62,016 bases of DNA. It comes from Candidatus Omnitrophota bacterium (GTDB lineage Bacteria > Omnitrophota > Gorgyraeia > Ghiorseimicrobiales > Ghiorseimicrobiaceae). A program made the translations under genes and the position numbers. The notes below the pieces were generated by a model. That model searched no databases. It saw only the letters and a list, made by a program, of their open reading frames with translations, and was not told the DNA's origin. This document shows positions 14,631 to 32,865 of the stretch, in pieces. Within the stretch, counting starts at the first letter, position 1; the number at the start of each line of letters is the position of its first letter. The DNA lies in contig JAUXSB010000036.1 in NCBI GenBank assembly GCA_030681595.1, forward strand, positions 1 through 62,016, in the 5' to 3' direction.

Positions 14631-16484
14631 TTAATTATCCTGGTAGGAGAGTTCGAGCCAGTTAGATTTGGCGGAATCGATATCAGCCTTCCAGATTAAG
14701 ACCATATTATCGTATATACCGAGGGTGCGGTTCGCCCCCAATTTAGTATTGGCACTATTGGGGATAGTGATGGTACTTGCTGATAGATTTTCTAATATAA
14801 GCAGGTCGCCGTCAGCCTTTCCGTTGGCAATTGCCGTAGTAGTACTTAAGGTATAGCTTGGGTTGGGATCGAAAGGGATATAGCTTGCCGCTCCGGGCGT
14901 TATCGTGCCGCCTGAGCCGGGATTTTGACCTGAAGCCCGCTCAAGAGTAATCTTTTCTTTACCGGTGTATTTGGTGCCGGTACCAGAGTCGCTAATTTTA
15001 GCAGCCGTAAATCCTACCCCGTCAATATAATTAGCAACAAGATAGTTATCATTTTCTAAGGAAGAATTAATTTTTATGCCGTTTACTGCGCCGTCGGCGG
15101 TAGAGCCGCCAATAGAAAAAGATGAAATGAGATTATTATCGGAGTTTCCCTTAATCCAAATCCCAAAGTTACCATCATCGCTGATTAGATTGCCGGTTAG
15201 ATTGTTATTATTAGAGGCAACGACATTGATACTGGCGCAATTAATATCTACTTTTTTGCCATTGGAATATAACAGGTTTGCGGAAATAACGTTGTTGTTT
15301 GAAGAAGACTCCATAGAGATGCCGTTATATGCGTTCTCCTGAATATTATTGCCGGATACAGCATTGCCGGAAGAAGAGTAAAGCCGGATACCAATGCCTT
15401 CCTTCATTTCGCTGGCACTATTATCATATGCCATCCAATGTCTTTGGATATCGTTGGCGGATATAGTATTATTGTTTGATGAGCTAATCATTAGACCGTA
15501 GCCTCCTGACGGGCCAATATGATTACCGGATATAATGTTATTATTAGAAGTACCGAGGACAATATCCTGTAATGCATTATCTTTACAAATATTGCCGGAT
15601 ATAATGTTATTAGCGGAATTTGTCAAGACGAGGCAATAACCTTTGTTACGAAAAATATTATTAGAGATAATATTGCTGTTGGAATTATCAAGCGTTAGGG
15701 CGTAAATATATTCGTCTGGTGCCCCATCCATCCAAACATTATTAATCTTAGATAAAGTCACAGAATTAAAACTTATGCCGACTATACCGTTATAAATCGT
15801 GAGTTGCGAGATGAGTATTCTTGTTACATTTGAGGCGGTAATTCCGTCTATACTAGTGGCAATCTGCAATACCGTGCCTGCGCCTGCGCCAATAAGCGAG
15901 ATGCCGCTTTGCGCAACAGCAGTTGGATTGATAACGATACCTGGCGTTGCAATCGTAACTAAGCCTCCTGTGTCAGGACGAGTATAAGCAAGGTCTGGAG
16001 AAATTTTATCGCTAATATTATAAGTTCCATCCAAAAGATAAACTATGCCCTGTTTTGATTTGTTAACAGGGGTTGTGGCAGAATAAATAATATCAAGGAT
16101 TGCCTGATTTATCTCTTGCTGGTCATCTGTTCCGTCGCAGATATAGTCGGCCCTTTGGGCATCCAAGGAATCGCCTGCGTCATACTGGCCATCCCTATCT
16201 CTGTCCACACCGACTATCTTGGTGGCGACATTTTTATTGGCTGACAACGGTTTCCACTGTGTCCCGTCCCAAACATAAAGCTCCTCATCGATAGAATTAT
16301 AGCGGATTTCGCCTTCGGAACCTGAACCCAAAGTAGAGATATCCACACTATCTAAGCTTACGGTTTTAGCCTTCGTATCGCCAACCACGGTAATGTCTTC
16401 GCCAGCGGCAAAAATCAGGCCACAGGCCACAGGCTGTAGGCTGCAGGCTAAAAAGAAAATTAAAATTAGTTTAGTTAGCTTCAT
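14631..16484 (-). CDS. secreted right-handed parallel beta-helix repeat protein, paralog 1
   Basis: Sec signal peptide MKLTKLILIFFLACSLQPVACGLIFAAG. Many NNIISGN/NNxISxN beta-helix coils. Shared family blocks ADYICDGTDDQQEINQAI, VYLLDGTYNIS, LIGAGAGTVL, ILISQL, TKYTGKEKITLE, and a C-terminal GDLLILEN...LIW...WLEL module. Confidence 0.8.
   Translation of the reverse strand: MKLTKLILIFFLACSLQPVACGLIFAAGEDITVVGDTKAKTVSLDSVDISTLGSGSEGEIRYNSIDEELYVWDGTQWKPLSANKNVATKIVGVDRDRDGQYDAGDSLDAQRADYICDGTDDQQEINQAILDIIYSATTPVNKSKQGIVYLLDGTYNISDKISPDLAYTRPDTGGLVTIATPGIVINPTAVAQSGISLIGAGAGTVLQIATSIDGITASNVTRILISQLTIYNGIVGISFNSVTLSKINNVWMDGAPDEYIYALTLDNSNSNIISNNIFRNKGYCLVLTNSANNIISGNICKDNALQDIVLGTSNNNIISGNHIGPSGGYGLMISSSNNNTISANDIQRHWMAYDNSASEMKEGIGIRLYSSSGNAVSGNNIQENAYNGISMESSSNNNVISANLLYSNGKKVDINCASINVVASNNNNLTGNLISDDGNFGIWIKGNSDNNLISSFSIGGSTADGAVNGIKINSSLENDNYLVANYIDGVGFTAAKISDSGTGTKYTGKEKITLERASGQNPGSGGTITPGAASYIPFDPNPSYTLSTTTAIANGKADGDLLILENLSASTITIPNSANTKLGANRTLGIYDNMVLIWKADIDSAKSNWLELSYQDN
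16416..16449 (-). repeat. CAGGC/GCCTG word repeat inside the signal-peptide coding region of beta-helix paralog 1
   Basis: caggccacaggccacaggctgtaggctgcaggct encodes part of the hydrophobic core (SLQPVACGL). Confidence 0.7.
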
Positions 16485-16498
16485 CTATTTGTCTCCCG

Positions 16499-16589: not shown

Positions 16590-18428
16590 TTACTCGCTCA
16601 ACCCAAGCCATTGGGTGCCGTTCCAAATTAATTCCAAAACATCATCATTGTCCAACGCCCTGTTAGCTCCTATATCAACATTGCCGCCGTTTTGTACAGT
16701 TATTGGATCCAACAGGCTTAGATCTTTACATCTTAAGATTAAAAGGTCTCCCTGACTTTTTCCATTTTCCAGAGTAATAGTTTGGTCACTACCGCTTATA
16801 TTATTAAGAATAATGTGGCTTGACGGCGAATACACCGGAGATCCTGAAGTTTTGCCTGCCGGATATACTATTTGGCCGCTGGCTGTTATATCAACTGTTA
16901 TCGGCTCAAAGGTGATTTTTTCCTTGCCGGTATATTTTGTGTTTACACCCAAGTCGTCTATCTTATTTGTGGCAAATGCTGCACCGGTTATATAATTAGT
17001 TACCAGGTAATTATTGTCGGAATTGGAAGGAATCTTTATCCCATATCCTGTGCCGACAGAATCATAGATTAAATTTCCGGAAATCAAATTATTATCATAC
17101 TTATCGTCTGCTGCTCCTGATGCCCCATCCACGAAAATACCATTGAAAGCGCCTGTTTGGCCATTATCATAAAGCGCGTTTCCGGAAATAAGCTGGCCTA
17201 CTCCGGCGTTAAACAAGATACCCTCATGCCGGTTATTGGCAATCACGTTATTGCTGATTATTGAATAATTGGGAATTTTCCCCCATGGCGAATCAGGAAG
17301 CCCCGGATTAACATCTTTATCCCCCCATAAAGCAATCCCTTCTCTTGCGCCGCCGGTTACAGAGTTTCCAGATACAATAGAACGGTCGCCATCAGCCCAG
17401 ATGCCGCCGGTCTTATTAGCGGAAACAATATTATTAGAAATTATATTGTTCGTGCCCGCGTCCCAAAGAGAGGCATATATTTCAGATGGATCATCTTCTG
17501 GAGCTCCGCCAACATCTCCACCAATGAGTATATTATCGGAAACAATGTTATTCTGCGAACTTCGTCCGAGATACAGTTCACCCTCGCTGCAGCGGCTAAT
17601 ATAGTTATGAGAAACGATGTTATTGCTGGAAGTGCCGACCAGCTCAAGGCCATCGGCGTTTTCGCTAGGATTACCCAAATCAATATGTGCGTTACTAATA
17701 ATATTATTGTTGGAGTTCGTACAATAAATACCCGCTCTGCCGCCTTGCGTGCCTCTTATCCAAACTTTATCAATTTTAGAGTAAGTTACGTTATCAAAAT
17801 ATATACCGGCGGATTTCGTCTCGCTGCCGTCAAGCTGAAGTTGAGAGATTAAAAGATTACTCGCCGAGGTAGCGTTGATAATGTAGTATTGTGTTTCGGC
17901 GGCACTTCTTTTTTTAAGTATTGTCCCATTGCCTGCGCCAATCAAGGAGATATTGTTTCTATTTAAAATAATCCCCGCGTTATCTTGTGTCTGGCCTGAT
18001 TGCATAGTAATATCGTAAGTGCCTTCTAACAAATATACTGCGCCGCCTGAGGCAGGACAAGCGGCAATTGCCGCATTAATCTTTACCTGATCATCCGTGC
18101 CGGTACATTGATAAGACGCCTCTGCCTTGTTTTTATCTAAAGAGTCGCTGGCGGCGACAATGATAGTGGCGACGTTCATAGGAAGAGCGATGGTATTCCA
18201 TTGGGCCGCGTCTGAAATATATACGTCATTCTCGGTAGTATCATAATAAATCTGGCCTTCCGGGCCGGCGGGGCTAGGGGCACTTGTCTTTGGCGTTAAA
18301 TATAAGCTAGGCGTATCTATGTCGCCGTCAACGGATAGCTTCTGGGCAAAGGCAGAAGAAACACTGCCGGCAACCACTAACCAGTAACCAGTAACCAGTA
18401 AAATTGTTGTTAGTCTATTTAGCTTCAT
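16590..18428 (-). CDS. secreted right-handed parallel beta-helix repeat protein, paralog 2
   Basis: The ORF is open to 18455, but MKLNRLTTILLVTGYWLVVAGSVSSAFA (start 18428) is a typical signal peptide. Blocks SYQCTGTDDQVKINAAI, VYLLEGTYDIT, LIGAGNGTIL, LLISQL, NNIISN repeats, TKYTGKEKITFE, and a C-terminal GDLLILR...LIWNGTQWLGL. Confidence 0.8.
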   Translation of the reverse strand: MKLNRLTTILLVTGYWLVVAGSVSSAFAQKLSVDGDIDTPSLYLTPKTSAPSPAGPEGQIYYDTTENDVYISDAAQWNTIALPMNVATIIVAASDSLDKNKAEASYQCTGTDDQVKINAAIAACPASGGAVYLLEGTYDITMQSGQTQDNAGIILNRNNISLIGAGNGTILKKRSAAETQYYIINATSASNLLISQLQLDGSETKSAGIYFDNVTYSKIDKVWIRGTQGGRAGIYCTNSNNNIISNAHIDLGNPSENADGLELVGTSSNNIVSHNYISRCSEGELYLGRSSQNNIVSDNILIGGDVGGAPEDDPSEIYASLWDAGTNNIISNNIVSANKTGGIWADGDRSIVSGNSVTGGAREGIALWGDKDVNPGLPDSPWGKIPNYSIISNNVIANNRHEGILFNAGVGQLISGNALYDNGQTGAFNGIFVDGASGAADDKYDNNLISGNLIYDSVGTGYGIKIPSNSDNNYLVTNYITGAAFATNKIDDLGVNTKYTGKEKITFEPITVDITASGQIVYPAGKTSGSPVYSPSSHIILNNISGSDQTITLENGKSQGDLLILRCKDLSLLDPITVQNGGNVDIGANRALDNDDVLELIWNGTQWLGLSE

Positions 18429-18490
18429 CTCTGCCTCGTTTTTAACGCATAACACACTTGCCCGCCGAAGCTTTGTGGCGGGTAGCGCGG

Positions 18491-20371
18491 CTAATTATCC
18501 GCATGGACCAACTCAAGCCATGCCGTGCCGTTCCAGATAAACTTTGAGGTAGTGTTTTTGCTCCATGTCCGGTTATTATCACTACCGCGAATCTCAAAAT
18601 TACTACCGCATATTGATTCATCTCCCACTCTGATAGAATAAGACGATGTGTTTTCTATAATGAGCAGGTCGCCTAATGCCTTGCCGTCATCAATTGCGGC
18701 AAGGCCGGGAAGGGGTAGCGTAGGATCGCCTAGCGTAACATCTGCGCTTCCGTTAACACTTAACCGAAGATAAGTTACTGGACCGGTGCCGGTAGAAGAA
18801 AGGTCAATTTTGCCCCCATTAACAACGGTATAAGTAACCGGCTCAAGGGTAATTTTGTCTTTACCGGTGTATTTGGTGTTGGTGCCGGAGTCATTTATTC
18901 TTCTATCGTATCCGCTACCAACGTATCCTGCGCCGTCAATATAATTGCCTGTAAGATAATTATTAGCACTTTCGGGAGAAACAATATATACGCCATACTT
19001 GCCATTAGCGCCGCCTGCGGCTTTATATATCCGGTTGGAAGAAATCGTATTATCATCAATTCCCGACTCAAGCACAATACCAAAATAGTTCGGCTCGTAA
19101 ATAATATTTCCGTAGATTGAATTACTACCGGCGCTTGACCTCCAAATATAAACCCCAGAATTTCCTGCTTCCTCTATAATATTATTATGGATCAAGTTGT
19201 TCTTAGCATATTCAATCAGAATACCCTGACCCATGGTATCTGTATTGTTAAATTTAATTATATTGCCGGAAATAATATTGTTATCGCAAGGGTAGTATGT
19301 AGAAGGGGCGAGATAATAAGCGAGGAGCTTAATGCCGGTTGCGCCGCCGGTAGTCATATCAATGGAATTATTAGAAATAACGTTACTGGTAGTAAGTTGA
19401 AGAAAAATACCGGTTGAGCCTACCCCCCCAATGGTATTGGCAGAAACAGTATTGTTTGTGCTGGCTGGCGGGTTAGCCATGCTGCCGTAGATTAATACCG
19501 CGAAGCCATTGCTGTAAAACACATTATTATGAATAGTGTTATTGGAAGATCCGACAAGAGATAACCCATTATTATTATTATAAAAATGATTATCGCAGAC
19601 AATGTTCATATTAGAAGAGGAAATAATTACAGCTTGATCTCCTCCGCCAAGTATATTTTCTACCCATACCGCGCTAATCTTAGAATTGGTTACACCGCTA
19701 AAAGACATACCTGTATTAGTACCCCCAAAATCGCCACTGCCGTCAATTCTAAGCTGGGAAATAAGAATATTACTGATATTACTTGCTTTAATAACGCCGT
19801 CTATGCCTTCGAGAACTTGTTTTAGCACTGTGCCTGCGCCGGTGCCGATTAGGGCCTTACCGGAATCCGTGGTGCCACTGGCACCGGTATTATCAAAATT
19901 TATCGAGCCCGATATATTATAAGTCCCTTCCAAAAGATAGATTACTCCCGGTATCTTATTACCTGAAGTATCCACTAATGAATCTATGGCCGCATTTATC
20001 TCGGCTTGGTCGTCTGTGCCGTCACAGATGTAATCCGCGGTTTTATTGGTAAGCCGGGAATCTAAAGCCGGAACTGCGGGGTTGCGAGTTACCCCCACAA
20101 TCCTTGAAGCAATGGTTTTGCCGCCAGCGACTGCATCCCAGCCTGTGCCGTCGGAAACATAAACTTTGTCATTCTGGTAAACCACTCTTCCGCCAGTTCC
20201 GTCTCCCTTTTGAGCGGGAGAAGTTGTTTGCTCAACAAAAGTCGCGGTCTCCGTCTTAAGCTTTCCGCCACTTTCAACGGCAAGGTCGGCGGAAAACAGA
20301 GGAACGAATGACGAAAGGAGAAAGACGAAAATAAAAAATACGCTTGTGCTAATTGATTTACCCGCTTTCAT
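18491..20371 (-). CDS. secreted right-handed parallel beta-helix repeat protein, paralog 3
   Basis: The ORF is open to 20437, overlapping the upstream gene. MKAGKSISTSVFFIFVFLLSSFVPLFSA (start 20371) is the likely signal peptide. Blocks ADYICDGTDDQAEINAAI, VIYLLEGTYNIS, LIGTGAGTVL, ILISQL, TKYTGKDKITLE, and a C-terminal GDLLIIEN...FIWNGTAWLEL. Confidence 0.8.
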   Translation of the reverse strand: MKAGKSISTSVFFIFVFLLSSFVPLFSADLAVESGGKLKTETATFVEQTTSPAQKGDGTGGRVVYQNDKVYVSDGTGWDAVAGGKTIASRIVGVTRNPAVPALDSRLTNKTADYICDGTDDQAEINAAIDSLVDTSGNKIPGVIYLLEGTYNISGSINFDNTGASGTTDSGKALIGTGAGTVLKQVLEGIDGVIKASNISNILISQLRIDGSGDFGGTNTGMSFSGVTNSKISAVWVENILGGGDQAVIISSSNMNIVCDNHFYNNNNGLSLVGSSNNTIHNNVFYSNGFAVLIYGSMANPPASTNNTVSANTIGGVGSTGIFLQLTTSNVISNNSIDMTTGGATGIKLLAYYLAPSTYYPCDNNIISGNIIKFNNTDTMGQGILIEYAKNNLIHNNIIEEAGNSGVYIWRSSAGSNSIYGNIIYEPNYFGIVLESGIDDNTISSNRIYKAAGGANGKYGVYIVSPESANNYLTGNYIDGAGYVGSGYDRRINDSGTNTKYTGKDKITLEPVTYTVVNGGKIDLSSTGTGPVTYLRLSVNGSADVTLGDPTLPLPGLAAIDDGKALGDLLIIENTSSYSIRVGDESICGSNFEIRGSDNNRTWSKNTTSKFIWNGTAWLELVHADN

Positions 20372-20417
20372 TGCTACATCCTTTGTTCTATTAATTTTTC
20401 GCTTTTCATTTTTAATT

Positions 20418-21311
20418 TTACTGTATCCCCACCCCACCCATGGTACTTGTGCCCGCGCCGGATATGGTGACTGAACCAGTGATAATACTTCTATTTAAAC
20501 CTGTGTTGCGCGAGGCATCGGTAAAATTATAGCTGTATCCGCCTTTAATAGTTACGCCTTGGCCGATAGTAACGTTTTCCCATGTCAAGGTTTCTGCGGA
20601 AATCCTAATCTCATGGTCATTGGTTGCCGCGGTAAGATTATCTACCGCTGATGGCGACTCAAGCGGAGAATCAAGCGTATCATGCAACCTTTCTATTTCC
20701 ACAAAAGCCCTTGTCGCCGGGATTACCTTTACCAAAGCCAGCGATTTTATTCTGGCGAGCTGGGTTAAAGTTACCTGGTCCTTAATGCTACCGTCGCTAT
20801 TATATACTTTGCCCGTTGACCTTACCCAAAGGCGACCCGGGACAAAAGTATTAGCACTAGCTACGGTCTTACCAAATGCTATCTTCACCGTATACTTACC
20901 GACAGAATTTGCCGCATCGGGAAAATCCACATCAACATAAAAATCTTGGTAATCAGAACGGATATCGCTGGGGTCATCCGGGTCTGTGCCGGCGGAAGAC
21001 GGACTAGGCACTGCGGCGGCCACCCTATTAATCTTATTGTTAGAATTAGCTACGGTGCCGTTAGCCGCGCCGCCTGTCCCATCTGCCCAGCTTTTATCTT
21101 TGTCATACTCGCAGGATAAATCAATAAACGCCTGCTCAAGGCCGGCTCTGGCGATATATTCAGCAGAGCCTGTAGCCATTTCATGCTCCGCTCTCTTGCG
21201 CTCGCTGATAGTCATCGCCACATAGGCGGTCAAAAGGGCGCTTACCATCGTTACTACGATGATCGCCATAATTAACGCCATACCCTTATTGTTCTTTCTT
21301 GGTTTATTCAT
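20418..21311 (-). CDS. PilX-like minor pseudopilin
   Basis: 297 aa. N-terminal KGMALIMAIIVVTMVSALLTAYVAMTI hydrophobic helix typical of the PilX_N domain. Lies in a pseudopilin gene row. Confidence 0.6.
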   Translation of the reverse strand: MNKPRKNNKGMALIMAIIVVTMVSALLTAYVAMTISERKRAEHEMATGSAEYIARAGLEQAFIDLSCEYDKDKSWADGTGGAANGTVANSNNKINRVAAAVPSPSSAGTDPDDPSDIRSDYQDFYVDVDFPDAANSVGKYTVKIAFGKTVASANTFVPGRLWVRSTGKVYNSDGSIKDQVTLTQLARIKSLALVKVIPATRAFVEIERLHDTLDSPLESPSAVDNLTAATNDHEIRISAETLTWENVTIGQGVTIKGGYSYNFTDASRNTGLNRSIITGSVTISGAGTSTMGGVGIQ

Positions 21312-21389: not shown

Positions 21390-22058
21390 TTAGTTCCTAA
21401 AATCCACCCTTGCGGACATGGGTACGCTCAAAGCGGGAATATTACCCCTTTGCATTGCTTTGCTTGCGATTACGGTTATGGTCAAAGAATTTCCGGATAA
21501 GGTAAACTGTACACTGCTAATATCGTTGGCTAAAATCCTTCTTTTAGATATATCCAGGCCTCCTCCTGACGAAAAATTATCCCTGATAAACTGGTTTGGT
21601 TTACTGTCAGTACCTACATAATACTTAAGCTGGCCGTTTAGGTTAGTCCCAGATTCGCCTCCATCGCCCCAGACAATATTGCCTAAAGCATCTATCCCTT
21701 GAGACCCCTTTAGCGGTATCATAAAAGCTATTTCGCTTACCAAAACACCCTCTGAAAAAGGAACATTATAGGCAGGGGGCGGGCTAGGATTCAACGTAGC
21801 GGTATCGTATACCCGCGCCTTGCTGGAAAGGCCAAGCTCGCCAACCATCTTACTTAAGGCCTGATTTGCCTGCGCGGAAAGATAAGCTTTAGTAGTACCC
21901 ATACTCAGCGAGATATCATAAATACGCATTGCGCCGAAGGTAACGCCGGAAACAATGGTGAGGATAGAAACGGTCACCAGAATTTCCATAAGAGTAAATC
22001 CTCTTCTTCGTTTAGCGTTTAGCGTATAGCGTATAGCGTATAGTAAAGAATAAATCAT
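21390..22058 (-). CDS. pseudopilin with prepilin-type N-terminal cleavage/methylation domain
   Basis: ...AKRRRG/FTLMEILVTVSILTIVSG is the class III signal peptide (G|F, Glu at +5). It has an unusually long 20-aa leader, MIYSLLYAIRYTLNAKRRRG. Confidence 0.8.
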   Translation of the reverse strand: MIYSLLYAIRYTLNAKRRRGFTLMEILVTVSILTIVSGVTFGAMRIYDISLSMGTTKAYLSAQANQALSKMVGELGLSSKARVYDTATLNPSPPPAYNVPFSEGVLVSEIAFMIPLKGSQGIDALGNIVWGDGGESGTNLNGQLKYYVGTDSKPNQFIRDNFSSGGGLDISKRRILANDISSVQFTLSGNSLTITVIASKAMQRGNIPALSVPMSARVDFRN

Positions 22059-23623: not shown

Positions 23624-23633
23624 CCTAGCTCCT

Positions 23634-23875: not shown

Positions 23876-23995
23876 CCCCGTTAGAGATAGCCCCGAAACT
23901 TCGGGGCGTCTATTAAGCTTAAAACTAATCATTGCTTCTTGCTTCCTTATATAACACTTACCCCGTAGATGCATCTCTTGTTATCTCTAACGGGG
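23876..23995. mobile_element. MITE-like element copy a (14-bp perfect terminal inverted repeats CCCCGTTAGAGATA / TATCTCTAACGGGG)
   Basis: 120 bp. Internal hairpin GCCCCGAAACTTCGGGGC next to the left end. Flanked on both sides by TTAA. The right flank supplies the pilC stop codon. Confidence 0.6.
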
Positions 23996-25210
23996 TTAAT
24001 GCCCTAACTTCTTAATAATCTCCAGGATCGGCAAAAACATCGAGAGGGCAATCGTGGCAACTATGCCTCCCAAAAAAATGATTAACAACGGCTCTATTAA
24101 AGACATTAAAGCCCCGATAGCCGCATCCGCTTCACTTTCATAAAAATCCGCGATTTTATCCAACATCGGCGAAATACTACCCGTTTCCTCCCCCACCGTA
24201 ATCATATCTACAACCAGGGGGGCAAAAACGCCCTTGCCTGAGGCTTTAAGCGAATCACCGATTTTTTCACCCCGCGAAACCCGGGCCCTGGCACCCATAA
24301 GCCCTTTTTCTACTACCATATTATCAGCAGTTTTGGCTACTATTTCTAATCCATTAATGATGGAAATACCGCTCTTAACCAAGGTGGCCAAGGTGCGGGC
24401 AAAACGCGCGATCACTACCTTAAGGATAATATTGCCGAACACCGGCGTCTTTAAACACGCCCTATCAAAATTATAGCGGCCGGTTTCGCTACGGACATAC
24501 AGCCTGAGGGCAATAACAATCGCGGCTATCGCTGCCAAAAGATACGGATAAAACCCGCGGATAAGATCGCTTATCTTAATTACTATCTGCGTAGGCAGCG
24601 GCAGTTCGATTTGCAGGGAAACAAACATCTCCCGAAACGATGGGATTACTTTAATAAAAATAAAGGATGTGATTAAGACCGACATAGCAACTACTATCGC
24701 CGGATAAATTAAAGCCCCCTTCAATTTACGGGCGAGCTTATCTATTTCTTCTAAGTAACCGGCCATTTTTTCTAAGATCAAATCCAAGGCACCCCCCATC
24801 TCGCCGGCCTTGACCATATTGACATAGATAGAAGAGAATACGCGCGGATGAGCCGCCATTGCCTCAGAAAGGCTGCGCCCGGATTCAATATTAACCTGCA
24901 GGGAGTTAACCATCTTTTTTAAAGTCTTGTTTGTTACCTGATCATGGATAATGCTTAATCCTTTAACTAGAGGCACCCCGGCTTTAACCAGTGTGGCAAG
25001 CTGGCGAGAAAACACTACCAGCTCATTTAGCTTTACCCCTTTTTCTCTGCTAAGAAAAGACATGCCTTCGGCTTTTATTTCGTTAACAGAGACGATTGTT
25101 ACCGGCTCCTTTCTTAAAAAAGAAATGACGCTGGCACGATCGCGGGATTCTACTTCGCCTTGAATACGCTGGTTTTTGACATTAATAATACTATATTTAA
25201 ACTTGGACAT
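23996..25210 (-). CDS. pilC: type IV pilus / T2SS platform protein PilC (GspF family)
   Basis: 404 aa. Duplicated GspF domains and three TM segments. Motifs LATLVKAGVPL and LATLVKSGISI. Confidence 0.9.
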   Translation of the reverse strand: MSKFKYSIINVKNQRIQGEVESRDRASVISFLRKEPVTIVSVNEIKAEGMSFLSREKGVKLNELVVFSRQLATLVKAGVPLVKGLSIIHDQVTNKTLKKMVNSLQVNIESGRSLSEAMAAHPRVFSSIYVNMVKAGEMGGALDLILEKMAGYLEEIDKLARKLKGALIYPAIVVAMSVLITSFIFIKVIPSFREMFVSLQIELPLPTQIVIKISDLIRGFYPYLLAAIAAIVIALRLYVRSETGRYNFDRACLKTPVFGNIILKVVIARFARTLATLVKSGISIINGLEIVAKTADNMVVEKGLMGARARVSRGEKIGDSLKASGKGVFAPLVVDMITVGEETGSISPMLDKIADFYESEADAAIGALMSLIEPLLIIFLGGIVATIALSMFLPILEIIKKLGH

Positions 25211-25211
25211 T

Positions 25212-26840
25212 TTATCCTTCCGGGGTTACCCGCATAATCTCTTCTACGGCGATTTCTCCTTTTAAGGCCTTCTCTATGGCGTCCTCTCTTAGCGTGCGCA
25301 TGCCGTGCGCGCGGGCGTAAGCTCTGATTTCATCTAACGGTGCCCTCTTTAATATCATCTGCCGCACAACATCATCCACGCTTAACGCCTCCACCACAGC
25401 AACCCTTCCCAAATAACCGCTCTTATTGCAGGCATCGCAACCCGCCCCGCGATAAAGTACGACATTTTTCTCTAAAACAAACGCCGATAAGCCGGCAATG
25501 CTTCCGGTGGGAACCTCATACGGCTCTTTACATTTTACGCAGATTTTACGCGCCAAGCGCTGGGCCGCGACTAAAATTAAAGTGGAAGCAATAAGAAAAG
25601 GCTCAACCTTCATGTCCATAAGCCGCACTATCGCGCTGGGCGCGTCATTAGTATGCAGGGTGCTTAAGATAATATGCCCTGTCAGGGCTGCCTTCATTGC
25701 TATGTCCACAGTTTCATAATCACGAATTTCTCCGACCATTATTACGTCGGGGCTTTGCCTCAATACCGCCCGAAGGGCCGCGGCAAAATTAAGGCCGATA
25801 TCCGGTTTTACCTGTATTTGCGTCAACCCTTTCATCTGGTATTCTACCGGGTCTTCAACGGTAACTAAATGTTTGTGGGGAGTATTTAGCCTGCCCATAA
25901 TGGAATAAAGCGTGGTAGATTTTCCTGAACCGGTGGGGCCGGTCAAAAGAATCATCCCGTATGGCTTGCTTGCTGCCTCTGTAAATGCCTCCAGCGCGTA
26001 AGTAGAAAACCCCAGCCTTCCTAAATCCATAGACATGCTGGTTTTATCCAAAATCCTTAAAACTGCCTTCTCCCCGAAATGAACGGGTAAAATGGATACG
26101 CGGAAATCCACCTCCTTGTCTTTTAATTTTAAAGAGAACCTGCCATCCTGCGGCGTGCGCCTTATGGTTATGTCTAAACCCGACACAATCTTAATCCTGG
26201 CAATGATAGCCGCGGTATTCTCGCGAAATAACGGGGTACGTTCCTGCATAATACCGTCTATACGGAACCTTAAGCGCAACACATCCGAATACGGCTCTAT
26301 GTGAATATCACTTGCGCGTAAATCAATCGCATCTTTAACAATATTATTAACCATGTTGACTATCGCGGCGTCTTGGCTAACCCTGATTATTTCTTTAATA
26401 TCAAGGCCCTCCTCATCAACAGCGGCAGGCTTCCAAATAAGCTCAAGCTCTCTGTCTTTCTTAAGCGTTTCCTCGCCGATTAACAGGTCTATTACCAAAG
26501 AGCTATAATAATCATCCTGCGATTTTTTGATTTGAGGGGCGGTAGCCACCACCGGCTGGATATTGCACTTGGTAATAATCTTGAGGTTATCCAGCACAAA
26601 CACTTCAAAAGGGTCCACCATTGCAACAGTCAAAACCATCCCCATTTTTGCCAAAGGCATAATGCGGTAACTGCGCGCGAGATGTTCGGGAACAGCCTTT
26701 AAAACATCCGTGTCTACTTTATATTTAGCCAGATTTATCGGGGGGAAACCAGAATCTTCAGAAACGGCGATTAATTCCCTCTGTTCTTCGGAGACCTCTT
26801 GTAAATCAACAGCTTTTGGTTTTTTGATTCCTTCTTTCAT
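25212..26840 (-). CDS. pilB: type IV pilus assembly ATPase PilB (GspE family)
   Basis: 542 aa. T2SSE_N-type N-terminal domain, Walker A GPTGSGKST, Asp and His boxes, and the C-terminal CxxC..CxxC cluster (CVKCKEPY ... CDACNKSGY). Confidence 0.9.
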   Translation of the reverse strand: MKEGIKKPKAVDLQEVSEEQRELIAVSEDSGFPPINLAKYKVDTDVLKAVPEHLARSYRIMPLAKMGMVLTVAMVDPFEVFVLDNLKIITKCNIQPVVATAPQIKKSQDDYYSSLVIDLLIGEETLKKDRELELIWKPAAVDEEGLDIKEIIRVSQDAAIVNMVNNIVKDAIDLRASDIHIEPYSDVLRLRFRIDGIMQERTPLFRENTAAIIARIKIVSGLDITIRRTPQDGRFSLKLKDKEVDFRVSILPVHFGEKAVLRILDKTSMSMDLGRLGFSTYALEAFTEAASKPYGMILLTGPTGSGKSTTLYSIMGRLNTPHKHLVTVEDPVEYQMKGLTQIQVKPDIGLNFAAALRAVLRQSPDVIMVGEIRDYETVDIAMKAALTGHIILSTLHTNDAPSAIVRLMDMKVEPFLIASTLILVAAQRLARKICVKCKEPYEVPTGSIAGLSAFVLEKNVVLYRGAGCDACNKSGYLGRVAVVEALSVDDVVRQMILKRAPLDEIRAYARAHGMRTLREDAIEKALKGEIAVEEIMRVTPEG

Positions 26841-26991: not shown

Positions 26992-28212
26992 TCATTTAGT
27001 AGTTACCCTTACCACCTCTTCCATTGTAGTTATGCCCCCCGCCGCTAAGCTCACCGCGATCTCCCGTAAAAGAATCATCCCTTCTTCCCGGGCGCACTTA
27101 CGGATTTCTGATTCGGGAGCGTTAGAGATAATGAGTTTCCTGATATTGGGGCTTACTTCCATAGTTTCTGCCAAGGCGACCCTGCTTTTATATCCGGTAT
27201 TATTACATCCAACACAGCCTTTGGCTTTATACAGCTGCGACACCTCTTTTATTCTCGGGTTTTCCGCTTTAATTCCGGCGGCCACCTCCATGGATACCGG
27301 ATACGGCTCTTTGCATTCGGAACAAAGCGTCCTCAATAAAACCTGGCAGGAAATTAAAAGGCAGGACGAGCTAATCAGAAAAGGTTCCACCCCCATGTCT
27401 CTTAGCCTTATCATGGCGCTGGAGGCAGAGGTGGTATGCAGAGTAGAAAGCAAAAGGTGCCCGGTTAAAGCCGCCTTAACCGCGATATCCGCCGTCTCAG
27501 AATCGCGAATTTCTCCGATAAGAATAATATCGGGGTCCTGTCTTAATATTGAGCGAAGCGCAGATACAAACGTAAGCCCGATGCTCTCCTGAACCGCCAC
27601 CTGATTTATCCCGGATAATTCATATTCAATCGGGTCTTCAACAGTAAGGATATTGGTCTCGACTGAATTAATAAAATTTATTGCCGAATAAAGCGTGGTA
27701 GTTTTGCCGGAGCCTGTCGGGCCGCAGACTAAAATCATGCCGAACGGCTTAATTAGGTTGCGCTTAAATAAAACGAGTGTCCTCTCATCAAACCCCAATT
27801 TATTTATATCTAAAATTATCTTTGATTTATCCAAGACGCGCAAGACTATCTTTTCCCCCATGCTCGTAGGAACTATTGAGACGCGGAAATCCACATCACG
27901 CGCCTGAAACTGCATACGGAACCGCCCCTCCTGCGGCAGGCGGTGCTCGGCAATATCCAGGCCTGCCATTACTTTAATGCGGCTGACTATGCCCGAATGG
28001 AATGAAACCGGCAGAGTTATACGCTCATAGAGGATGCCGTCTATCCTATAACGAATCCTCACCGCTTCAGGGTCCGGTTCTATAAAAATATCACTGGTTT
28101 TCTGGTCTATACCGAGAGCTAAAATTTTGGTCACCGCTTTTACCGTTGGCCCATGCGCAACTATGGACTTAGAAATATCCTGTTCAAGTTTTTTAGATTC
28201 CTCCTGCTCCAT
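26992..28212 (-). CDS. GspE/MshE-type secretion ATPase lacking its N-terminal regulatory domain
   Basis: 406 aa. Walker A GPTGSGKTT, Walker B/Asp box, His box, tetracysteine CSECKEPY ... CVGCNNTGY. The start ATG overlaps the end of the upstream MshEN ORF by 20 nt and has its own SD, AGGGAG. Confidence 0.88.
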   Translation of the reverse strand: MEQEESKKLEQDISKSIVAHGPTVKAVTKILALGIDQKTSDIFIEPDPEAVRIRYRIDGILYERITLPVSFHSGIVSRIKVMAGLDIAEHRLPQEGRFRMQFQARDVDFRVSIVPTSMGEKIVLRVLDKSKIILDINKLGFDERTLVLFKRNLIKPFGMILVCGPTGSGKTTTLYSAINFINSVETNILTVEDPIEYELSGINQVAVQESIGLTFVSALRSILRQDPDIILIGEIRDSETADIAVKAALTGHLLLSTLHTTSASSAMIRLRDMGVEPFLISSSCLLISCQVLLRTLCSECKEPYPVSMEVAAGIKAENPRIKEVSQLYKAKGCVGCNNTGYKSRVALAETMEVSPNIRKLIISNAPESEIRKCAREEGMILLREIAVSLAAGGITTMEEVVRVTTK

Positions 28213-28651
28213 AATTCTCCCTTTGCGCCTTCTTTAATTCTGAAGGCGTAGTAACAAAAATTTTTATCTTCAGGCCCAGGGCTTCCTCTAAGCCCTTAAG
28301 CGAATCTTCATCTAGCGGGTTTAACATCGCCACGGTAAGAATGTTGCCTATCCTGTCTACGGGCATGATATTAAATTTTTCGGCGCTTTCTTGAGGAACG
28401 AGCGTTAGGGTTTCCTCATCGATAGAACAGTTGGCAATCTTGATATAGGGATAGCCCAATTGCATTGCCAAAGCGCTGTAAATTTCCTCCTCGGTGACAT
28501 AACCTAAATCGCTTAAGACTTCGCCTAAAACCTTCCCCTTGCACTTGGTGCGCTGCAAGATTAATGCCTCTTCCAGGCGTTCTTTAGTAATTACGCCTTT
28601 TTCTAAAAGGAGTTCACCAAGCCGGGTTTTTAATCTTCGTTTTGGCGGCAT
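28193..28651 (-). CDS. stand-alone T2SSE_N / MshEN domain protein (predicted c-di-GMP receptor)
   Basis: 152 aa. RLGELLLEKGVITKERLEEALILQ matches the MshEN motif RLGxx(L/V/I)(L/V/I)xxG(L/V/I/F)(L/V/I)xxxxLxxxLxxQ exactly. A second, degenerate copy follows (VLGEVLSDLGYVTEEEIYSALAMQ). Confidence 0.75.
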   Translation of the reverse strand: MPPKRRLKTRLGELLLEKGVITKERLEEALILQRTKCKGKVLGEVLSDLGYVTEEEIYSALAMQLGYPYIKIANCSIDEETLTLVPQESAEKFNIMPVDRIGNILTVAMLNPLDEDSLKGLEEALGLKIKIFVTTPSELKKAQRENYGAGGI

Positions 28652-28818: not shown

Positions 28819-31800
28819 TTATTTAATTTTCCTGCTTAATACTTTTTTTATCAAGAGCTGCATCTCTTTATTTTTTTCAATCTCAAGCAAACCGGATAAA
28901 ACATCGTCGGAATTTTTAGTGCCTATTACGCCCAGCGCTGACACCGCCTGCCGGCGCAACTCTAAATCTTCATGGTAAAGAAACGACTCAATTGCTTCAG
29001 ACAAACCCTCCTTGCCGAGGTAGCCGGCCAACTCCAGAAGAATCGACAGGTTTTCCTTGTTTTTTTCCTCGGACAAATATTTCTTTACTTTAACCAAGGC
29101 TGTCTCGCCCATTTCTTTTAAGACTGCGGCTACGCGTTTACGCATCGCATATCCCTCAAAAGAATCTTTGGCAATTTTCTTTGCGCTTAAGCAGATATCT
29201 AGCAGCGCATCGCAAGAAGCGCTACCTAAAATCTCAAGTAACGCTTTTACCCGTTTAGGCTCAGCCTGAAAATAATCCAAGATAACGGCAACCAGCATCT
29301 CCAAAAAGTTAACCACTTTTAATGTGCTTTGAATAAAGGTTGTTATCGCGCTATATAGGGCGGTATCTTCGGGAGCCTGAGATTTAAGCCTCTTCTCCAG
29401 GATGCTAAAAACCTCGGCAATAAACACCGCGTAATCTTTCCTAGAAGTCTTCTCTACGACCAAATACAACTCTTCCGGCTCCAGGCTTTTCATAAAGTCT
29501 TCGCTTAGCCATTTTATAATATCTAATATTTCGCTATAAACTTTGGGGTCGGCCTCAACCCTTAATATTTCAAGGAACACCTGGCATCTGCTTAAAATAT
29601 GGGTATCTTTACATATAAATTCTTTAATAATTTTGCTTATTTTTTTATGCGTCTCCAGATCGCTGGCTAAAGCTTTAAGCATAAATGATTGAATCAAGCT
29701 TTTAAACCCCGGGGTATCCTGCCCGTAAAACAGCTCTTCCATAAAGGCGCCGACGAGGCTTAAATCAATTGTCGCAAACTCTTCTTGCGGTAAATCGAGA
29801 AGGGCCTTTAACCTTTTCTCTCTCGCAAGCTTATTCCAACCGGACTTGCTACAAAGCGAGCCGACAGTCTCTTTATCCATCCCTAATTCCGTAAGCTTTG
29901 CCTCGACCAACGGCAGGACCTCCCGTTTTTTAGCCGCGGACGGCGTAGCCTTATCAATTAAATCTTTTACCACTAAAGGGTTATCTGAACCCTCGCGGAT
30001 ACTGCGCTCTATAAGGCTGACGATCTCCTGCGCGGAGAGCTTATTGATAATCTCTTCGGTAATGTTTGTTTTATTGGAAGAGGTTATCTGCGGCTTTAGG
30101 CGGATAAACTTAGCCTTCAGTTTCCAGTCCAATTCCTGAATAACCTTAGCTAAATTCTCTACCGCCTCGGAGGCGGCAAGGCGCTCAACAGGAATTTGCG
30201 CGCTGATTTTTTTTATCGTTTCGGCAAGCACATTAATTTCACCGGTTTTATCTTGCTTTCCGCTGGAGGCGGCAATTTTACTTATAGCCTCCGCAAACTT
30301 CCGCGGCTCCTCGGCGATCTTGGAAAGAAAGCTTTTTTTATCCACATCATCGTGGCCGACCTTACCGAGGAGAAACTCCATCATCATCGCGTCTTCAAAC
30401 TTCTTGCGTGGCCCTGCCCTGCCCAAGCTAGATTTGGCAATTTCTTCATAACTAAACTCATCTATCCTGATATGGGCCAGCCTTTTTTCCTGAATAACCG
30501 CCTTCCATATATTCTTATTCGTCGCTGAGCGCCTTGGCTGGCTAAAATTATCTAAAAATATACTTACTTCTTCTTCGTTAATACCCTGAGTAAATGAAAG
30601 GGATTTTATGTTGCTTTCTACCATAAGAGAAATAAAATCTCCTTCGCCTAATTCCTGAATCTCACGCAAAGAAAAACGCCTGCCGTTTATTACAAGGCTG
30701 TTTCCCGATTCGATAATCTCTAATCTCGGCGTATCTTGCAGGATCAACTCCAGGCTATGGTAAATATCCATCACGAAATTGTTGCGTATAGAGCTACCCG
30801 TGGGGTAAAGCTGAAAATTCTTTACCGCCGACTGGGTCAATTTTATCAGCCGGGATATCTCGACTCGCGTCAGCGCAACCAGCTCTAATTTAATCTCTTT
30901 CTCTTCTCCTGTTTTTATTGCTCTGGCGGCAAATTCCTTGAGGTAATCAACGACTTCTGCCGGATTGAATAGATCCGAGGCCCTTTCTTCTAGGAGGCGG
31001 CCGTATTTGTCGGAAATAACTCCGGCGGCGGCCTTTCCAAAATGCAGCGAAAGATCAGCCGCCACATCGGATAAATCATCCTCGTGCTCTGAGGCCAACA
31101 TCTCGCCTATTTTCTGATGCAGGTTTTTTTGCTCTTCTTCGCTTAACTCGTTATACAGCGCGTCCTGTATCCCGCTGCTAATAAAATTAAATTTGCCGAT
31201 TTTCTCCGACTCTTTTACCAAATGCTTCTTCTTCGCCCGGGCCATTACTTCAAATATGTAACCTTCGTTTTTTTCGCCTAATTTTTTAAGTAAATCGACA
31301 CTAAAGTCTTCTCCGATAACCGCTGCCTGCACTATCAGCTCCTTAGTTTCTTTATCCAGCGTCTTTACCCGCCTCTTAATAGTTTCTTCCAATGAATTGG
31401 GTATATCTATTGCCTCAAGGCCCGCGGCCAGGCCCCATCCGTTATCTTTATAAACTAAAAGCTTATTCTCCGCCAGCGACTTAAATATCTCCTCAATAAA
31501 AGCCGGGTTTCCTTTAGTGATCTCAAAAATAGAGTCGCTTAATTCCTTGATTTGTTTTAAGCCGGGGAACATCGCTTCAATCATCTCACGCGTATCGCGT
31601 TTAGCTAAATCCGGTAACGGTATTTCTATGGCATTTTCGCCGTTATGCAGATATTCTAACAACTGCGCAAGGGCGCTTTTTTCTCCCCGCTCAACAACAG
31701 GTTTGCCTTTTAAGGTAGCTATGGCCAATATTTTTCTTTTCTTCTCGTATTTAATGAGGTAATGCAATAATTCTATGCTGGCGTTATCCGCCCACTGCAA

Positions 31801-32865
31801 ATCATCAAAATAGAGGATCAACGGATTCTTAGAATTTATCGCGATCAACAAATCCAACATTGACTTAAACAGTAACGCCCTTGCTTCTTTGCCTGCCAAG
31901 GACGATCTTGCGCCCTCTATCTGCGGAAGCAATTTAGCCAATTCGGCTAATTCATCTTCGGGGAGAATAGAGATGAGTTCTTGGGCCTGCAGGCTATGCG
32001 GGCGTATATTGCTTAAATAATTATCTAGTGCTGCGGCAAAAAGATAATAAGGGTCTTCCGCATGTTTGTGAGCGCCTTTGGCGGTAAGGACTACCGCCTC
32101 ATTTTTGGCATAATTACTAAACTCTTCCGCTAACCTGCTCTTCCCCGTGCCTGTCTCGCCGTAAATAAGAACGGCGGTTAAAAGGCCCTTGCTTAAAACC
32201 GTACCGCTATATGCCTCTTTAAGCTTCGCCATCTCGGTATCTCTGTCAATAAATTTTGGGCAAGGAAAAAAATCCAGGGCCATCTGGGTAGCCGCGCTCT
32301 CCAGAGTAACTTCCTGCGAATACGAAATTTGGTTTTTCCCTTTTTCCTTAGATAAATAGAGGGCCTTATCGGCAAGGTCTATCAGCTTATCTACCTCGGT
32401 AGAATCAGCCGGGCAAAGAGAAAAACCCATGCTTATAGTCAGGCGTATCTCCTGCCCATCTTTAGCCCGGAAAGATGTTTGGGCTATTTGTTCAACTAAA
32501 CGCTTTCCCAGGCTTAGTCCCGTCTCTTTGTCAACTCCGGGGAGTAATACCATAAACTCATCTCCGGCGTAGCGTATTACCATATCAGTCAGCCTGCGGG
32601 TTTTCTTCAGCGCTTCAGAAAACTGTTTTAAAATTTCGTCTCCGGAAAGATGCCCGCATGTGTCATTTAACTCTTTAAAATTATCTATGTCTATGATAAA
32701 TACTCCCAAAGAATAATCGCTGAATTGCGATTTTTTGATTTCCTGGGGAAGAAACTCGTAGAGGTAATAACGGTTAAATAACCCCGTCAGAGGATCAATA
32801 AAGGTGGGTTTTTCAAAACGGATGTCTTTAACCGGTTCCTGAGGGCGCAATTTCTCATTGTCCAT
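28819..32865 (-). CDS. GGDEF (diguanylate cyclase) - STAND/AAA_16 NTPase - helical/HEAT-repeat protein
   Basis: 1348 aa. N-terminal GGDEF domain (DPLTGLFNR, DIDNFKELNDTCGHLSGD, RYAGDEF with RLTD five residues upstream, which is I-site-like). Walker A GETGTGKSRL and Walker B LILYFDDLQWAD. Long alpha-helical region ending in HEAT-like repeats (EDLELRRQAVSALGVIG). Confidence 0.8.
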   Translation of the reverse strand: MDNEKLRPQEPVKDIRFEKPTFIDPLTGLFNRYYLYEFLPQEIKKSQFSDYSLGVFIIDIDNFKELNDTCGHLSGDEILKQFSEALKKTRRLTDMVIRYAGDEFMVLLPGVDKETGLSLGKRLVEQIAQTSFRAKDGQEIRLTISMGFSLCPADSTEVDKLIDLADKALYLSKEKGKNQISYSQEVTLESAATQMALDFFPCPKFIDRDTEMAKLKEAYSGTVLSKGLLTAVLIYGETGTGKSRLAEEFSNYAKNEAVVLTAKGAHKHAEDPYYLFAAALDNYLSNIRPHSLQAQELISILPEDELAELAKLLPQIEGARSSLAGKEARALLFKSMLDLLIAINSKNPLILYFDDLQWADNASIELLHYLIKYEKKRKILAIATLKGKPVVERGEKSALAQLLEYLHNGENAIEIPLPDLAKRDTREMIEAMFPGLKQIKELSDSIFEITKGNPAFIEEIFKSLAENKLLVYKDNGWGLAAGLEAIDIPNSLEETIKRRVKTLDKETKELIVQAAVIGEDFSVDLLKKLGEKNEGYIFEVMARAKKKHLVKESEKIGKFNFISSGIQDALYNELSEEEQKNLHQKIGEMLASEHEDDLSDVAADLSLHFGKAAAGVISDKYGRLLEERASDLFNPAEVVDYLKEFAARAIKTGEEKEIKLELVALTRVEISRLIKLTQSAVKNFQLYPTGSSIRNNFVMDIYHSLELILQDTPRLEIIESGNSLVINGRRFSLREIQELGEGDFISLMVESNIKSLSFTQGINEEEVSIFLDNFSQPRRSATNKNIWKAVIQEKRLAHIRIDEFSYEEIAKSSLGRAGPRKKFEDAMMMEFLLGKVGHDDVDKKSFLSKIAEEPRKFAEAISKIAASSGKQDKTGEINVLAETIKKISAQIPVERLAASEAVENLAKVIQELDWKLKAKFIRLKPQITSSNKTNITEEIINKLSAQEIVSLIERSIREGSDNPLVVKDLIDKATPSAAKKREVLPLVEAKLTELGMDKETVGSLCSKSGWNKLAREKRLKALLDLPQEEFATIDLSLVGAFMEELFYGQDTPGFKSLIQSFMLKALASDLETHKKISKIIKEFICKDTHILSRCQVFLEILRVEADPKVYSEILDIIKWLSEDFMKSLEPEELYLVVEKTSRKDYAVFIAEVFSILEKRLKSQAPEDTALYSAITTFIQSTLKVVNFLEMLVAVILDYFQAEPKRVKALLEILGSASCDALLDICLSAKKIAKDSFEGYAMRKRVAAVLKEMGETALVKVKKYLSEEKNKENLSILLELAGYLGKEGLSEAIESFLYHEDLELRRQAVSALGVIGTKNSDDVLSGLLEIEKNKEMQLLIKKVLSRKIK

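Follow-up and report, generated by a model that had tools for sequence, protein, structure and literature searches.

Introduction

MshE, the ATPase of the MSHA pilus of Vibrio cholerae, and PA14_29490, the ATPase of a type II secretion system (T2SS) of Pseudomonas aeruginosa, are receptors for cyclic di-GMP (c-di-GMP) that bind it through an MshEN domain (PMC11731258, PMC12943098, PMC4624765). Here we describe a related locus in a 62,016-nucleotide (62-kb) stretch of DNA from a Candidatus Omnitrophota bacterium (contig JAUXSB010000036.1 of assembly GCA_030681595.1), called the window below, in which a GGDEF-STAND protein, a stand-alone MshEN protein, a set of pilus motor and assembly genes, and a c-di-GMP riboswitch lie together. 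As in MshE and PA14_29490, the putative receptor has a 24-residue RLGxxLLxxGLLxxxxLxxxLxxQ motif, exact in its first copy, and a predicted four-helix bundle preceding a GSPII/T2SSE_N subdomain, and the motor belongs to the PilB/GspE family; like the MSHA locus, the window encodes a tetratricopeptide repeat (TPR) protein. The MSHA locus also holds a GGDEF/EAL-type gene (mshH/csrD). Unlike MshE, the putative receptor in the window is a separate polypeptide of 152 amino acids (aa) and its motor has no N-domain; the spacer between its two motifs is 7 aa rather than 5, and there is also a gene for a second PilB, which has no motif.

A separate receptor or adaptor also links c-di-GMP to the extension ATPase in the PilB-PilZ-FimX system of Xanthomonas citri (PMC8389850). 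There the parts are FimX's degenerate EAL domain and a PilZ adaptor, whereas the window uses an MshEN fold, and the X. citri locus has neither the dedicated cyclase nor the riboswitch found in the window. At the RNA level, the window aptamer shares with the Vc2 and Vc1 GEMM-I riboswitches of V. cholerae (RF01051; PMC4744006) the helices P1, P2 (with a GNRA loop) and P3, the G20/A47/C92 residues and a C-G interhelical pair. Unlike them, it scores slightly higher on RF03167, has a decoy embedded in its terminator with a predicted OFF polarity, and governs genes for minor pilins and beta-helix proteins. RF03167, the family of the GGC variant, is the best Rfam family for the aptamers of the window and of two related loci, L239 and L247 (61.3, 59.8, and 64.7 bits, respectively), but A rather than the consensus G is present at model position 37. 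Riboswitches for cyclic dinucleotides gate type IV pilus genes in other bacteria as well: GEMM-Ib (cGAMP) riboswitches occur near pil and cytochrome genes in Geobacter, and the c-di-GMP-II riboswitch of the Clostridioides difficile major pilin gene pilA1 is an ON switch. The locus described here belongs to a diderm candidate phylum and differs from these in riboswitch class or ligand, and in having a predicted OFF switch on tip pilins and cargo.

For the putative cyclase, the closest architectures are the class III cyclase-STAND fusions, which include the mycobacterial cyclase-AAA_16-TPR proteins and the TOMM kinase/cyclase family TIGR03903. They share with the window protein an N-terminal cyclase, an AAA_16 STAND domain, and helical repeats. 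The window protein differs from them in having a GGDEF effector and no helix-turn-helix (HTH) or kinase domain, and its family is confined to Omnitrophota, usually within a pilus locus. Members of this phylum are uncultured and mostly ultra-small, with a presumed dependence on hosts or prey; their predicted means of interaction are few and include type IV pili, and type IVa pili are widespread (PMC10066038). That study, the main one on Omnitrophota, does not mention c-di-GMP, riboswitches, or secretins.

An earlier reading of the window from its letters (the sequence-only reading) had proposed that these elements form one c-di-GMP module, and its author knew of no description of the combination as a unit; we likewise found no paper on it in the literature. 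Each component is of a known kind, and what is new is the packaging. This would consist of a phylum-specific GGDEF-STAND cyclase, MshEN acting in trans with a PilB that lacks its N-domain (with PilT in the type B loci described below), and a predicted negative riboswitch. We consider it probable that the locus encodes one conserved, Omnitrophota-specific machine of the type IV pilus-like/type II secretion-like kind, with c-di-GMP control at three points.

Organization and conservation of the locus

All genes of interest in the window are on the minus strand. The elements of the locus, with the basis for each assignment in parentheses, were as follows.

28819–32865, minus strand: GGDEF-STAND protein, 1348 aa (Pfam and NCBIfam)
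28193–28651, minus strand: stand-alone MshEN protein, 152 aa (Pfam and NCBIfam)
26992–28212, minus strand: truncated PilB/GspE-type ATPase, 406 aa (T2SSE)
25212–26840, minus strand: full-length PilB-like ATPase with MshEN and T2SSE, 542 aa (Pfam and NCBIfam)
23996–25210, minus strand: PilC/GspF platform protein (T2SSF, 197 bits)
23809–23837, minus strand: sigma-70-like promoter, TTGTAA, 17 nucleotides (nt), TG-n-TATACT (precedes the riboswitch)
23688–23784, minus strand: c-di-GMP-I (GEMM-I) aptamer including an extended P1 (Rfam match 23694–23779)
23634–23702, minus strand: expression platform (folding and conservation)
22064–23623, minus strand: Kelch-pilin, prepilin-like, 519 aa (N_methyl and Kelch matches)
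21390–22058, minus strand: pseudopilin, 222 aa, G↓FTLMEIL (Pfam, NCBIfam, and prepilin motif)
20418–21311, minus strand: PilX/GspK-like minor pseudopilin, 297 aa (weak matches only)
18491–20437, minus strand: beta-helix paralog, 648 aa (profile matches)
16590–18455, minus strand: beta-helix paralog, 621 aa (profile matches)
14631–16484, minus strand: beta-helix paralog, 617 aa (profile matches)
14583–14599, minus strand: terminator-like hairpin with a T-run, end of the riboswitch-controlled unit (sequence)
8304–14381, minus strand: assembly and outer-membrane unit, MerR-like HTH to PilM (profile matches)

Every element that the sequence-only reading had placed between 14631 and 32865 was found at its coordinates, with scores well above chance; the extent of the locus had to be revised, because the machine runs on downstream to 8304. 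The riboswitch is housed in the 372-nt gap between pilC and the Kelch-pilin gene, and a TTGACA-type promoter lies downstream of the 14583–14599 hairpin, ahead of the pilN-to-pilM unit.

The nearest named relatives of the locus were metagenome-assembled genomes of Candidatus Omnitrophica/Omnitrophota. Two gene orders were distinguished. In type A, the genes for GGDEF-STAND, MshEN, the truncated PilB-type ATPase, PilB, PilC, and the minor pilins follow one another; the window shares this order with about nine other loci (L244/L245, L234/L235, L236, L238, L239, L075, which is the same contig as L156, L076, L246, and L247), with 34–97% protein identity to the window. In both L075 and L076 the gene immediately upstream of GGDEF-STAND encodes a secretin. 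Type B has the order (HAMP-)GAF-GGDEF, PilT, MshEN, two PilB genes, PilC, and a 143-aa pilin, and its PilT (355 aa) scores above the pilT_fam cut-off. Conservation of the whole arrangement excludes chance juxtaposition, and the proposal of a single co-conserved module held. The placement of a cyclase beside pilus motors and a free MshEN recurs in Omnitrophota, and the sensor modules in it are interchangeable.

Two further features were seen in individual relatives. In L247 a gene at 1185–3635 for a CHASE2-GGDEF(weak)-HD-GYP protein heads the MerR-like/PilN/PilO/secretin/TPR/PilM unit, and its domains make it a likely c-di-GMP phosphodiesterase; no c-di-GMP phosphodiesterase was seen in the window. 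A gene for a four-helix protein of the 23S_rRNA_IVP family is present between pilB and pilC in L244 (6377–6772, 131 aa) and L076 (17634–18002, 122 aa), and is absent from the window.

Riboswitch aptamer

The candidate GEMM-I riboswitch was borne out by the Rfam search, in which RF03167 matched 23694–23779 on the minus strand; the score of 61.3 bits exceeds the gathering score of 59, and E, calculated over the whole window, is 4.9e-12. The RF01051 score of the window aptamer was masked by clan competition (clan CL00126); the near-identical aptamer of L244 was assigned to RF01051 with 63.2 bits (gathering score 35). A covariance model built in this analysis (R1) gave 103.6 bits for the window aptamer. 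The P1/P2/P3 architecture is present, with a GUAA (GNRA) loop on P2, and the contact stretches read ...AAAAG-GC..., ...GCGC-A-AAAUU..., and ...UUG-C-CG....

The residues that contact c-di-GMP are G20, A47, and C92 in Vc2 numbering (PMC4744006). Their equivalents were G, A, and C in all six aptamers compared (window, L244, L239, L234, L075, and L247). The printed RF03167 consensus has a conserved G at the A47 equivalent, which is model position 37, and this G defines the GGC variant, reportedly described by Weinberg et al. in PNAS in 2017. Because A, not G, occupies this position, membership in the GGC variant was rejected despite the top RF03167 score, and the window element appears from its contact residues to be a canonical-triad c-di-GMP-I aptamer.

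In a model-based alignment of five aptamers, 15 of 28 pairs changed on both sides and 89% of cells were paired, compared with at most 51% when the partners were slid; none of 500 shuffles reached the observed pairing or covariation values, which are to be read with the caveat that the alignment was fitted to the model. Homologous aptamers were present at the equivalent site in L244, L239 (59.8 bits), L234 (34 bits), and L075 (34 bits), and the promoter box TGCTATACT was conserved 5' of all four. The aptamer of L247, a distant type A locus, (64.7 bits) follows two minor pilin genes and precedes genes for two large uncharacterised proteins. For the aptamers of the window, L239, L244, and L247, the Rfam score was no lower than the gathering score. 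The L075 aptamer carries a 53-nt insertion; the C that cmscan placed at position 47 in this aptamer was discarded because MAFFT and the model-based alignment both put the insertion before an intact GCAAAAUCACAGG.

In the L234 aptamer the P2 internal loop is deleted symmetrically, and the C44 equivalent is lost. The riboswitch was present in six of the nine type A loci readable past pilC; searches with the R1 model did not find it in L238, L246, or the type B loci, nor in the 354 nt of L076 that were covered. Because the aptamer is missing from some type A loci, RNA-level control is not essential to the module, and the riboswitch is a variable add-on.

Three other low-scoring matches were set aside: those of R1 at 31654–31721 of the window and at 8144–8225 of L076 were at chance level (E = 0.16 and 0.47), and that of EGFOA-assoc-1 at 23907–24036 of the window (16 bits, gathering score 224) was noise.

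Expression platform and switch polarity

On the 3' side of P1 is an intrinsic terminator, GCCAUUUGCUAGAA-UUC-UUCGGCAGAUGGC plus a U-run (23674–23634; stem 23645–23674), which is followed by a ribosome binding site, AGGAG, at 23629–23633. The P1 3' strand, UUGCCGAAGGAA (23691–23702), is complementary to a decoy, UUCUUCGGCA (23651–23660), inside the terminator; because of this complementarity the decoy mimics the P1 5' strand. Decoy and terminator arms show little or no variation among the window, L244, L234, and L075, and are better conserved than the aptamer helices. For the window, L234, and L075, folds of transcripts ending before the terminator 3' arm had the P1 3' strand paired with the decoy, and the full-length L075 leader folded as P1 plus terminator. 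The P1 3' strand lies outside the terminator stem, so that bound ligand cannot block the terminator directly. On these predicted structures we favor, with moderate confidence, an OFF switch, in which c-di-GMP would terminate transcription of the tip-pilin and cargo operon. The sequence-only reading had c-di-GMP acting at the RNA level on the fibre and cargo genes; the riboswitch is there, but induction through it is not what the platform predicts.

The opposite polarity has points in its favor. With ON polarity, c-di-GMP would turn on the operon for pilins and beta-helix proteins alongside activation of the ATPase, a coherent and biologically simpler circuit; c-di-GMP riboswitches of both polarities are known, and pilA1 of C. 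difficile is induced through its class II c-di-GMP riboswitch. The minimum free energy (MFE) fold of the full window leader shows the antiterminator, the terminator appearing in another fold context. L239 retains the base of the terminator, but an obvious decoy is absent from it and its platform is different. These last two observations detract from the OFF assignment, and thermodynamic folds are no proof of co-transcriptional behavior. We nevertheless consider an ON switch unlikely: the position of the P1 3' strand leaves the ligand no direct means of hindering the terminator, the sole conserved competitor of P1 is the decoy within the terminator, which is the standard OFF-switch arrangement, and L075 at full length adopts P1 and terminator together.

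GGDEF-STAND protein

The 1348-aa protein at 28819–32865 has, as had been predicted, an N-terminal GGDEF domain (residues 22–179; 144 bits, cut-off 23.8) and a STAND nucleoside triphosphatase (NTPase) domain, detected as AAA_16 (residues 205–372; 73.2 bits, cut-off 32.6) with the Walker A sequence GETGTGKS. An AAA_16/NACHT-type P-loop behind an N-terminal effector is the composition of a STAND protein, and TIGR03903 matched residues 206–614 with E = 7e-34. The proposed HEAT-type sensor region fared less well: HEAT_2 was the sole match to the C-terminal 900 aa, at 22.7 bits, below its curated cut-off of 27.7. The C-terminal part would nonetheless be a repeat sensor.

The active-site stretch reads RLTD-MVIRY-AGDEF (AGDEF codons at approximately 32554–32568), with an RxxD I-site at the canonical 5 aa upstream of AGDEF. 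DIDNFKELND, which matches DxDxFKxxND, supplies the metal- and guanine-binding residues. The strict GG(D/E)EF sequence is absent, both the window protein and the five orthologues that could be read having AGDEF; in all five orthologues R..DMVIRYAGDEF and D.DNFK.LND are kept. The active site is thus non-canonical. An AGDEF cyclase of V. cholerae, VCA0965, is experimentally active and makes c-di-GMP (PMC3974145), and diguanylate cyclase activity of the AGDEF-STAND protein is therefore still plausible.

When the sensor part alone was used as a query, about 20 clusters were recovered, all with GGDEF and AAA_16 (plus HEAT_2). Their members were 1339–1374 aa long except for a few fragments, and every named one was from Omnitrophota; outside this family the search matched just three weak AAA_16 proteins. 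A metagenome scan with the STAND and sensor parts gave only two true relatives (L156 being the L075 contig), the remaining matches being weak AAA_16 proteins from gut metagenomes. A distant GGDEF-STAND homologue, L248, is not adjacent to pilus genes.

The departure from GG[DE]EF, the fact that many degenerate GGDEF domains serve as receptors, and the unlinked homologue L248 would all suit a protein that is no cyclase, that is, an I-site c-di-GMP receptor, a GTP receptor or scaffold, or a STAND defence or other sensor that is merely adjacent to the pilus genes. We judge this improbable. D.DNFK.LND and the I-site are conserved across orthologues, and the V. cholerae AGDEF enzyme is active. A PADLOC search of the protein gave no match, and the gene order is kept in about ten loci, with the secretin gene directly upstream in two of them.

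Stand-alone MshEN protein and its truncated ATPase

Pfam MshEN matched residues 65–150 of the 152-aa protein with 64 bits, and the NCBIfam c-di-GMP_motif model gave 63.6 bits (cut-off 38). The published consensus consists of two tandem 24-residue motifs, (R/K/L)LGxx(L/V/I)(L/V/I)xxG(L/V/I)(L/V/I)xxxxLxxxLxxQ, that are 5 residues apart (PMC11731258). Motif I of the window protein, RLGELLLEKGVITKERLEEALILQ (residues 10–33; 28553–28624), is an exact match, as the sequence-only reading had stated for this free-standing protein; in orthologues its position 1 is K or T. Matches to PDB sequences covered residues 3–147 and included Thermus PilF GSPII-A/B/C, PilB, and MshE (5HTL), so that by homology a four-helix bundle and a GSPII/T2SSE_N subdomain are predicted. 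Three features weigh against the receptor assignment. Motif II, VLGEVLSDLGYVTEEEIYSALAMQ (28460–28531), is partly degenerate, keeping LG, G10, L21, and Q24 and departing at positions 7, 11, and 17; the inter-motif spacer has the 7 residues noted above; and in three close orthologues H, R, or N takes the place of the second conserved Gly in motif I.

The open reading frame (ORF) for MshEN overlaps that of the 406-aa ATPase by 20 nt, the ATPase ATG lying within the end of the MshEN ORF, and the same overlapping ATGGA start is found in L075, L076, L234, L236, L238, L239, L244, and L246. The overlap suggests translational coupling. The ATPase contains T2SSE only (423 bits), with no N-terminal MshEN/N1 domain; because it aligns to positions 165–563 of the PilB model, it lacks exactly the N-terminal domain. 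The predicted succession of MshEN, a GspE/MshE-type ATPase, pilB, and pilC was thereby recovered. The 542-aa PilB has an MshEN-fold N-domain without the c-di-GMP motif, and the NCBIfam c-di-GMP_motif model did not match it.

The lengths of the two products (152 + 406 aa, about that of MshE) and the 20-nt overlap might point to a frameshifted or decaying mshE/pilB or an assembly error, with the three elements juxtaposed by chance, but this is ruled out for practical purposes by the two intact ORFs in at least nine independent assemblies (53–97% identity), by a family of stand-alone MshEN proteins of 137–157 aa with at least 42 clusters in a database search, and by the type B MshEN genes, which cannot be pieces of PilB genes because they lie beside full-length ones. 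The two-ORF arrangement is real and old. The description of it as a split MshE was correct as to the separate receptor and ATPase ORFs; the 152-aa protein belongs to a stand-alone family and is more than the product of a local, one-off split.

Pilins, beta-helix proteins, and assembly machinery

The operon behind the riboswitch was confirmed, by profile matches and signal peptides, to encode three pseudopilins and three secreted beta-helix paralogs. In the 519-aa protein a Kelch beta-propeller is inserted in the pilin globular domain, behind a G↓FTLVE cleavage motif, and this Kelch-pilin is a candidate fibre-tip adhesin. Full-length orthologues were found in L075, L244 (two copies), and L246, and an orthologue of the 222-aa pseudopilin in L075. 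A Kelch-pilin scan of GTDB was swamped by generic Kelch proteins, only one match (L001, without riboswitch) covering the N-terminus. The 297-aa protein matched PilX_N (E = 0.0057) and GspK (E = 4e-4), both below the curated cut-offs.

In L244, the closest relative (MshEN 97% identical), the two Kelch-pilin paralogs are at 8085–9644 and 10001–11464. One directly follows pilC and precedes the riboswitch, and the other, 84% identical to that of the window, lies behind it; the L244 riboswitch thus sits inside the gene row.

The beta-helix paralogs have 31–35% mutual identity, a Sec-type signal peptide each, and matches to NosD, Beta_helix, and Phage_depo_C; two of the three end in a phage-depolymerase-type beta-sandwich. 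A search of PDB sequences with one of them gave no match. They are conserved in two relatives, with three copies in L244 and at least one in L246, and are candidates for secreted or fibre-associated cargo that binds or degrades glycans.

The unit at 8304–14381 encodes a MerR-like HTH protein (70 aa), PilN-like, PilO-like, and T2SSB-like (139 aa) proteins, a PilQ/GspD secretin, a TPR protein, and PilM, and the same gene set is present in L244 and L247. The profile matches for PilO and PilP-like were weak, and PilN would be identified by its INLLP start and its position. The MerR/excisionase-like HTH gene (about 70 aa), which may encode a local transcription factor, heads the pilN-pilO-secretin-TPR-pilM unit in every case and was located as follows.

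14169–14381 of the window, minus strand: MerR/excisionase-like HTH
18913–19125 of L244: MerR/excisionase-like HTH
3778–3987 of L247: MerR/excisionase-like HTH

A 114/228-nt repeat inside the TPR-protein gene (9996–10433, minus strand) is a recent internal duplication.

With respect to the kind of machine, PilB, PilC, PilM, PilN, PilO, and the PilQ secretin of a type IVa pilus are present. The GspE, GspF, and GspD models scored almost as high as those for PilB, PilC, and PilQ (PilC and GspF about equally on the platform protein), all below the equivalog cut-offs. The type II secretion components GspG, GspC, and GspL were not found in the window, which has PilM/N/O instead and only a weak GspK-like match. 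The gene content is that of a PilB/C/M/N/O/secretin type IV pilus-like machine. In agreement with the sequence-only reading, no major pilin, prepilin peptidase PilD, or PilT was found in the window, and a six-frame regular-expression scan of it for prepilin signals gave only two, G↓F(T)L(V/M)E. The absence of these genes is a point against the reading as one machine; they may be elsewhere in the genome.

Heptanucleotide repeats and flanking genes

The window contains five exact period-7 arrays of at least three copies, and none for periods 5, 6, or 8–12; no such arrays occurred in 50 shuffles. The exact arrays and further heptamer arrays were as follows.

23575–23604, 22013–22043, 18378–18401, 4730–4750, and 1137–1164: exact heptamer arrays
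16416–16449, 20304–20330, 20394–20419, 6226–6248, and 7231–7250: further heptamer arrays

Beyond the five exact arrays, Tandem Repeats Finder (TRF) detected about 20 degenerate ones, and tandem heptanucleotide repeats characterize this genome. Two of the arrays, TACGCTA x4, fall within the codons for the leader peptides of the two prepilin genes. Since a repeat length of 7 is not divisible by 3, a change in copy number would switch the prepilin genes on or off, and the arrays may be a means of phase variation. In the L234 and L244 orthologues the leaders contain other 7-nt repeats, and in the L238, L239, and L075 orthologues they contain none.

Past the end of the machine at 8304 are pyrimidine-synthesis genes. 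On the other flank are DUF3786, two uncharacterised proteins, a tRNA gene, gyrA, gyrB, dnaN, and dnaA, so that the window spans the chromosomal origin region. The GyrB gene (41966–45706, minus strand) is split by an intein that has an HNH endonuclease domain, with Intein_splicing and HNH_3 matches between the GyrB and Toprim domains. A 1488-aa ORF (34574–39040, minus strand) and a 412-aa ORF (3486–4724, minus strand) had no Pfam matches, and a PADLOC search with the former also gave no match. A perfect 45-nt tandem repeat (2.4 copies) at 61909–62016 runs off the end of the window.

Discussion

The three-point control that we consider probable would work as follows. A cue would be read by the C-terminal helical/HEAT region of the GGDEF-STAND protein, and NTP-dependent oligomerisation of the STAND domain would bring the AGDEF domains together, as cyclase catalysis needs; the RxxD I-site would provide product inhibition of this dedicated diguanylate cyclase. 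Motifs and conserved gene order suggest that c-di-GMP would bind the 152-aa MshEN protein, which the overlapping ORFs would supply in a fixed ratio with the truncated ATPase and which would serve in trans as the missing regulatory N-domain of that motor. By the same reasoning the full-length PilB, which has no motif, would be independent of c-di-GMP. The GEMM-I aptamer, with its own promoter, would control the Kelch-pilin, two pseudopilin, and three beta-helix genes. From the conserved alternative pairings we predict that ligand-stabilised P1 would keep UUGCCGAAGG from the decoy UUCUUCGGC in the terminator, so that the terminator forms and transcription stops. The net effect of a rise in c-di-GMP would be to engage the MshEN-dependent motor on existing machines and to halt synthesis of new tip pilins and cargo.

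A more elaborate scheme, a two-motor machine switched by c-di-GMP with MshEN as a class of trans adaptors, can be drawn from the same parts, and taken as a whole it is doubtful. With c-di-GMP low and the riboswitch open, the motif-less PilB would assemble a short pseudopilus with a Kelch tip, for export or display of the depolymerase-like beta-helix proteins. Once the STAND sensor is triggered, for instance by touching a host or prey cell, c-di-GMP would load MshEN onto the truncated ATPase, and this motor would then take over the PilC platform; the simultaneous riboswitch shut-off of tip and cargo synthesis would make an incoherent feed-forward pulse. Across Omnitrophota, stand-alone MshEN proteins might then be trans-acting c-di-GMP adaptors for PilB- and PilT-type motors.

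For riboswitch annotation the locus provides a caution, in that a best Rfam match to the GGC variant can mask a canonical ligand-contact triad. It also supplies a GGDEF effector on a STAND scaffold and what appear, from their motifs, to be natural examples of an MshEN receptor acting in trans. For the Omnitrophota pilus, control by c-di-GMP at three points offers a compact, testable regulatory model.

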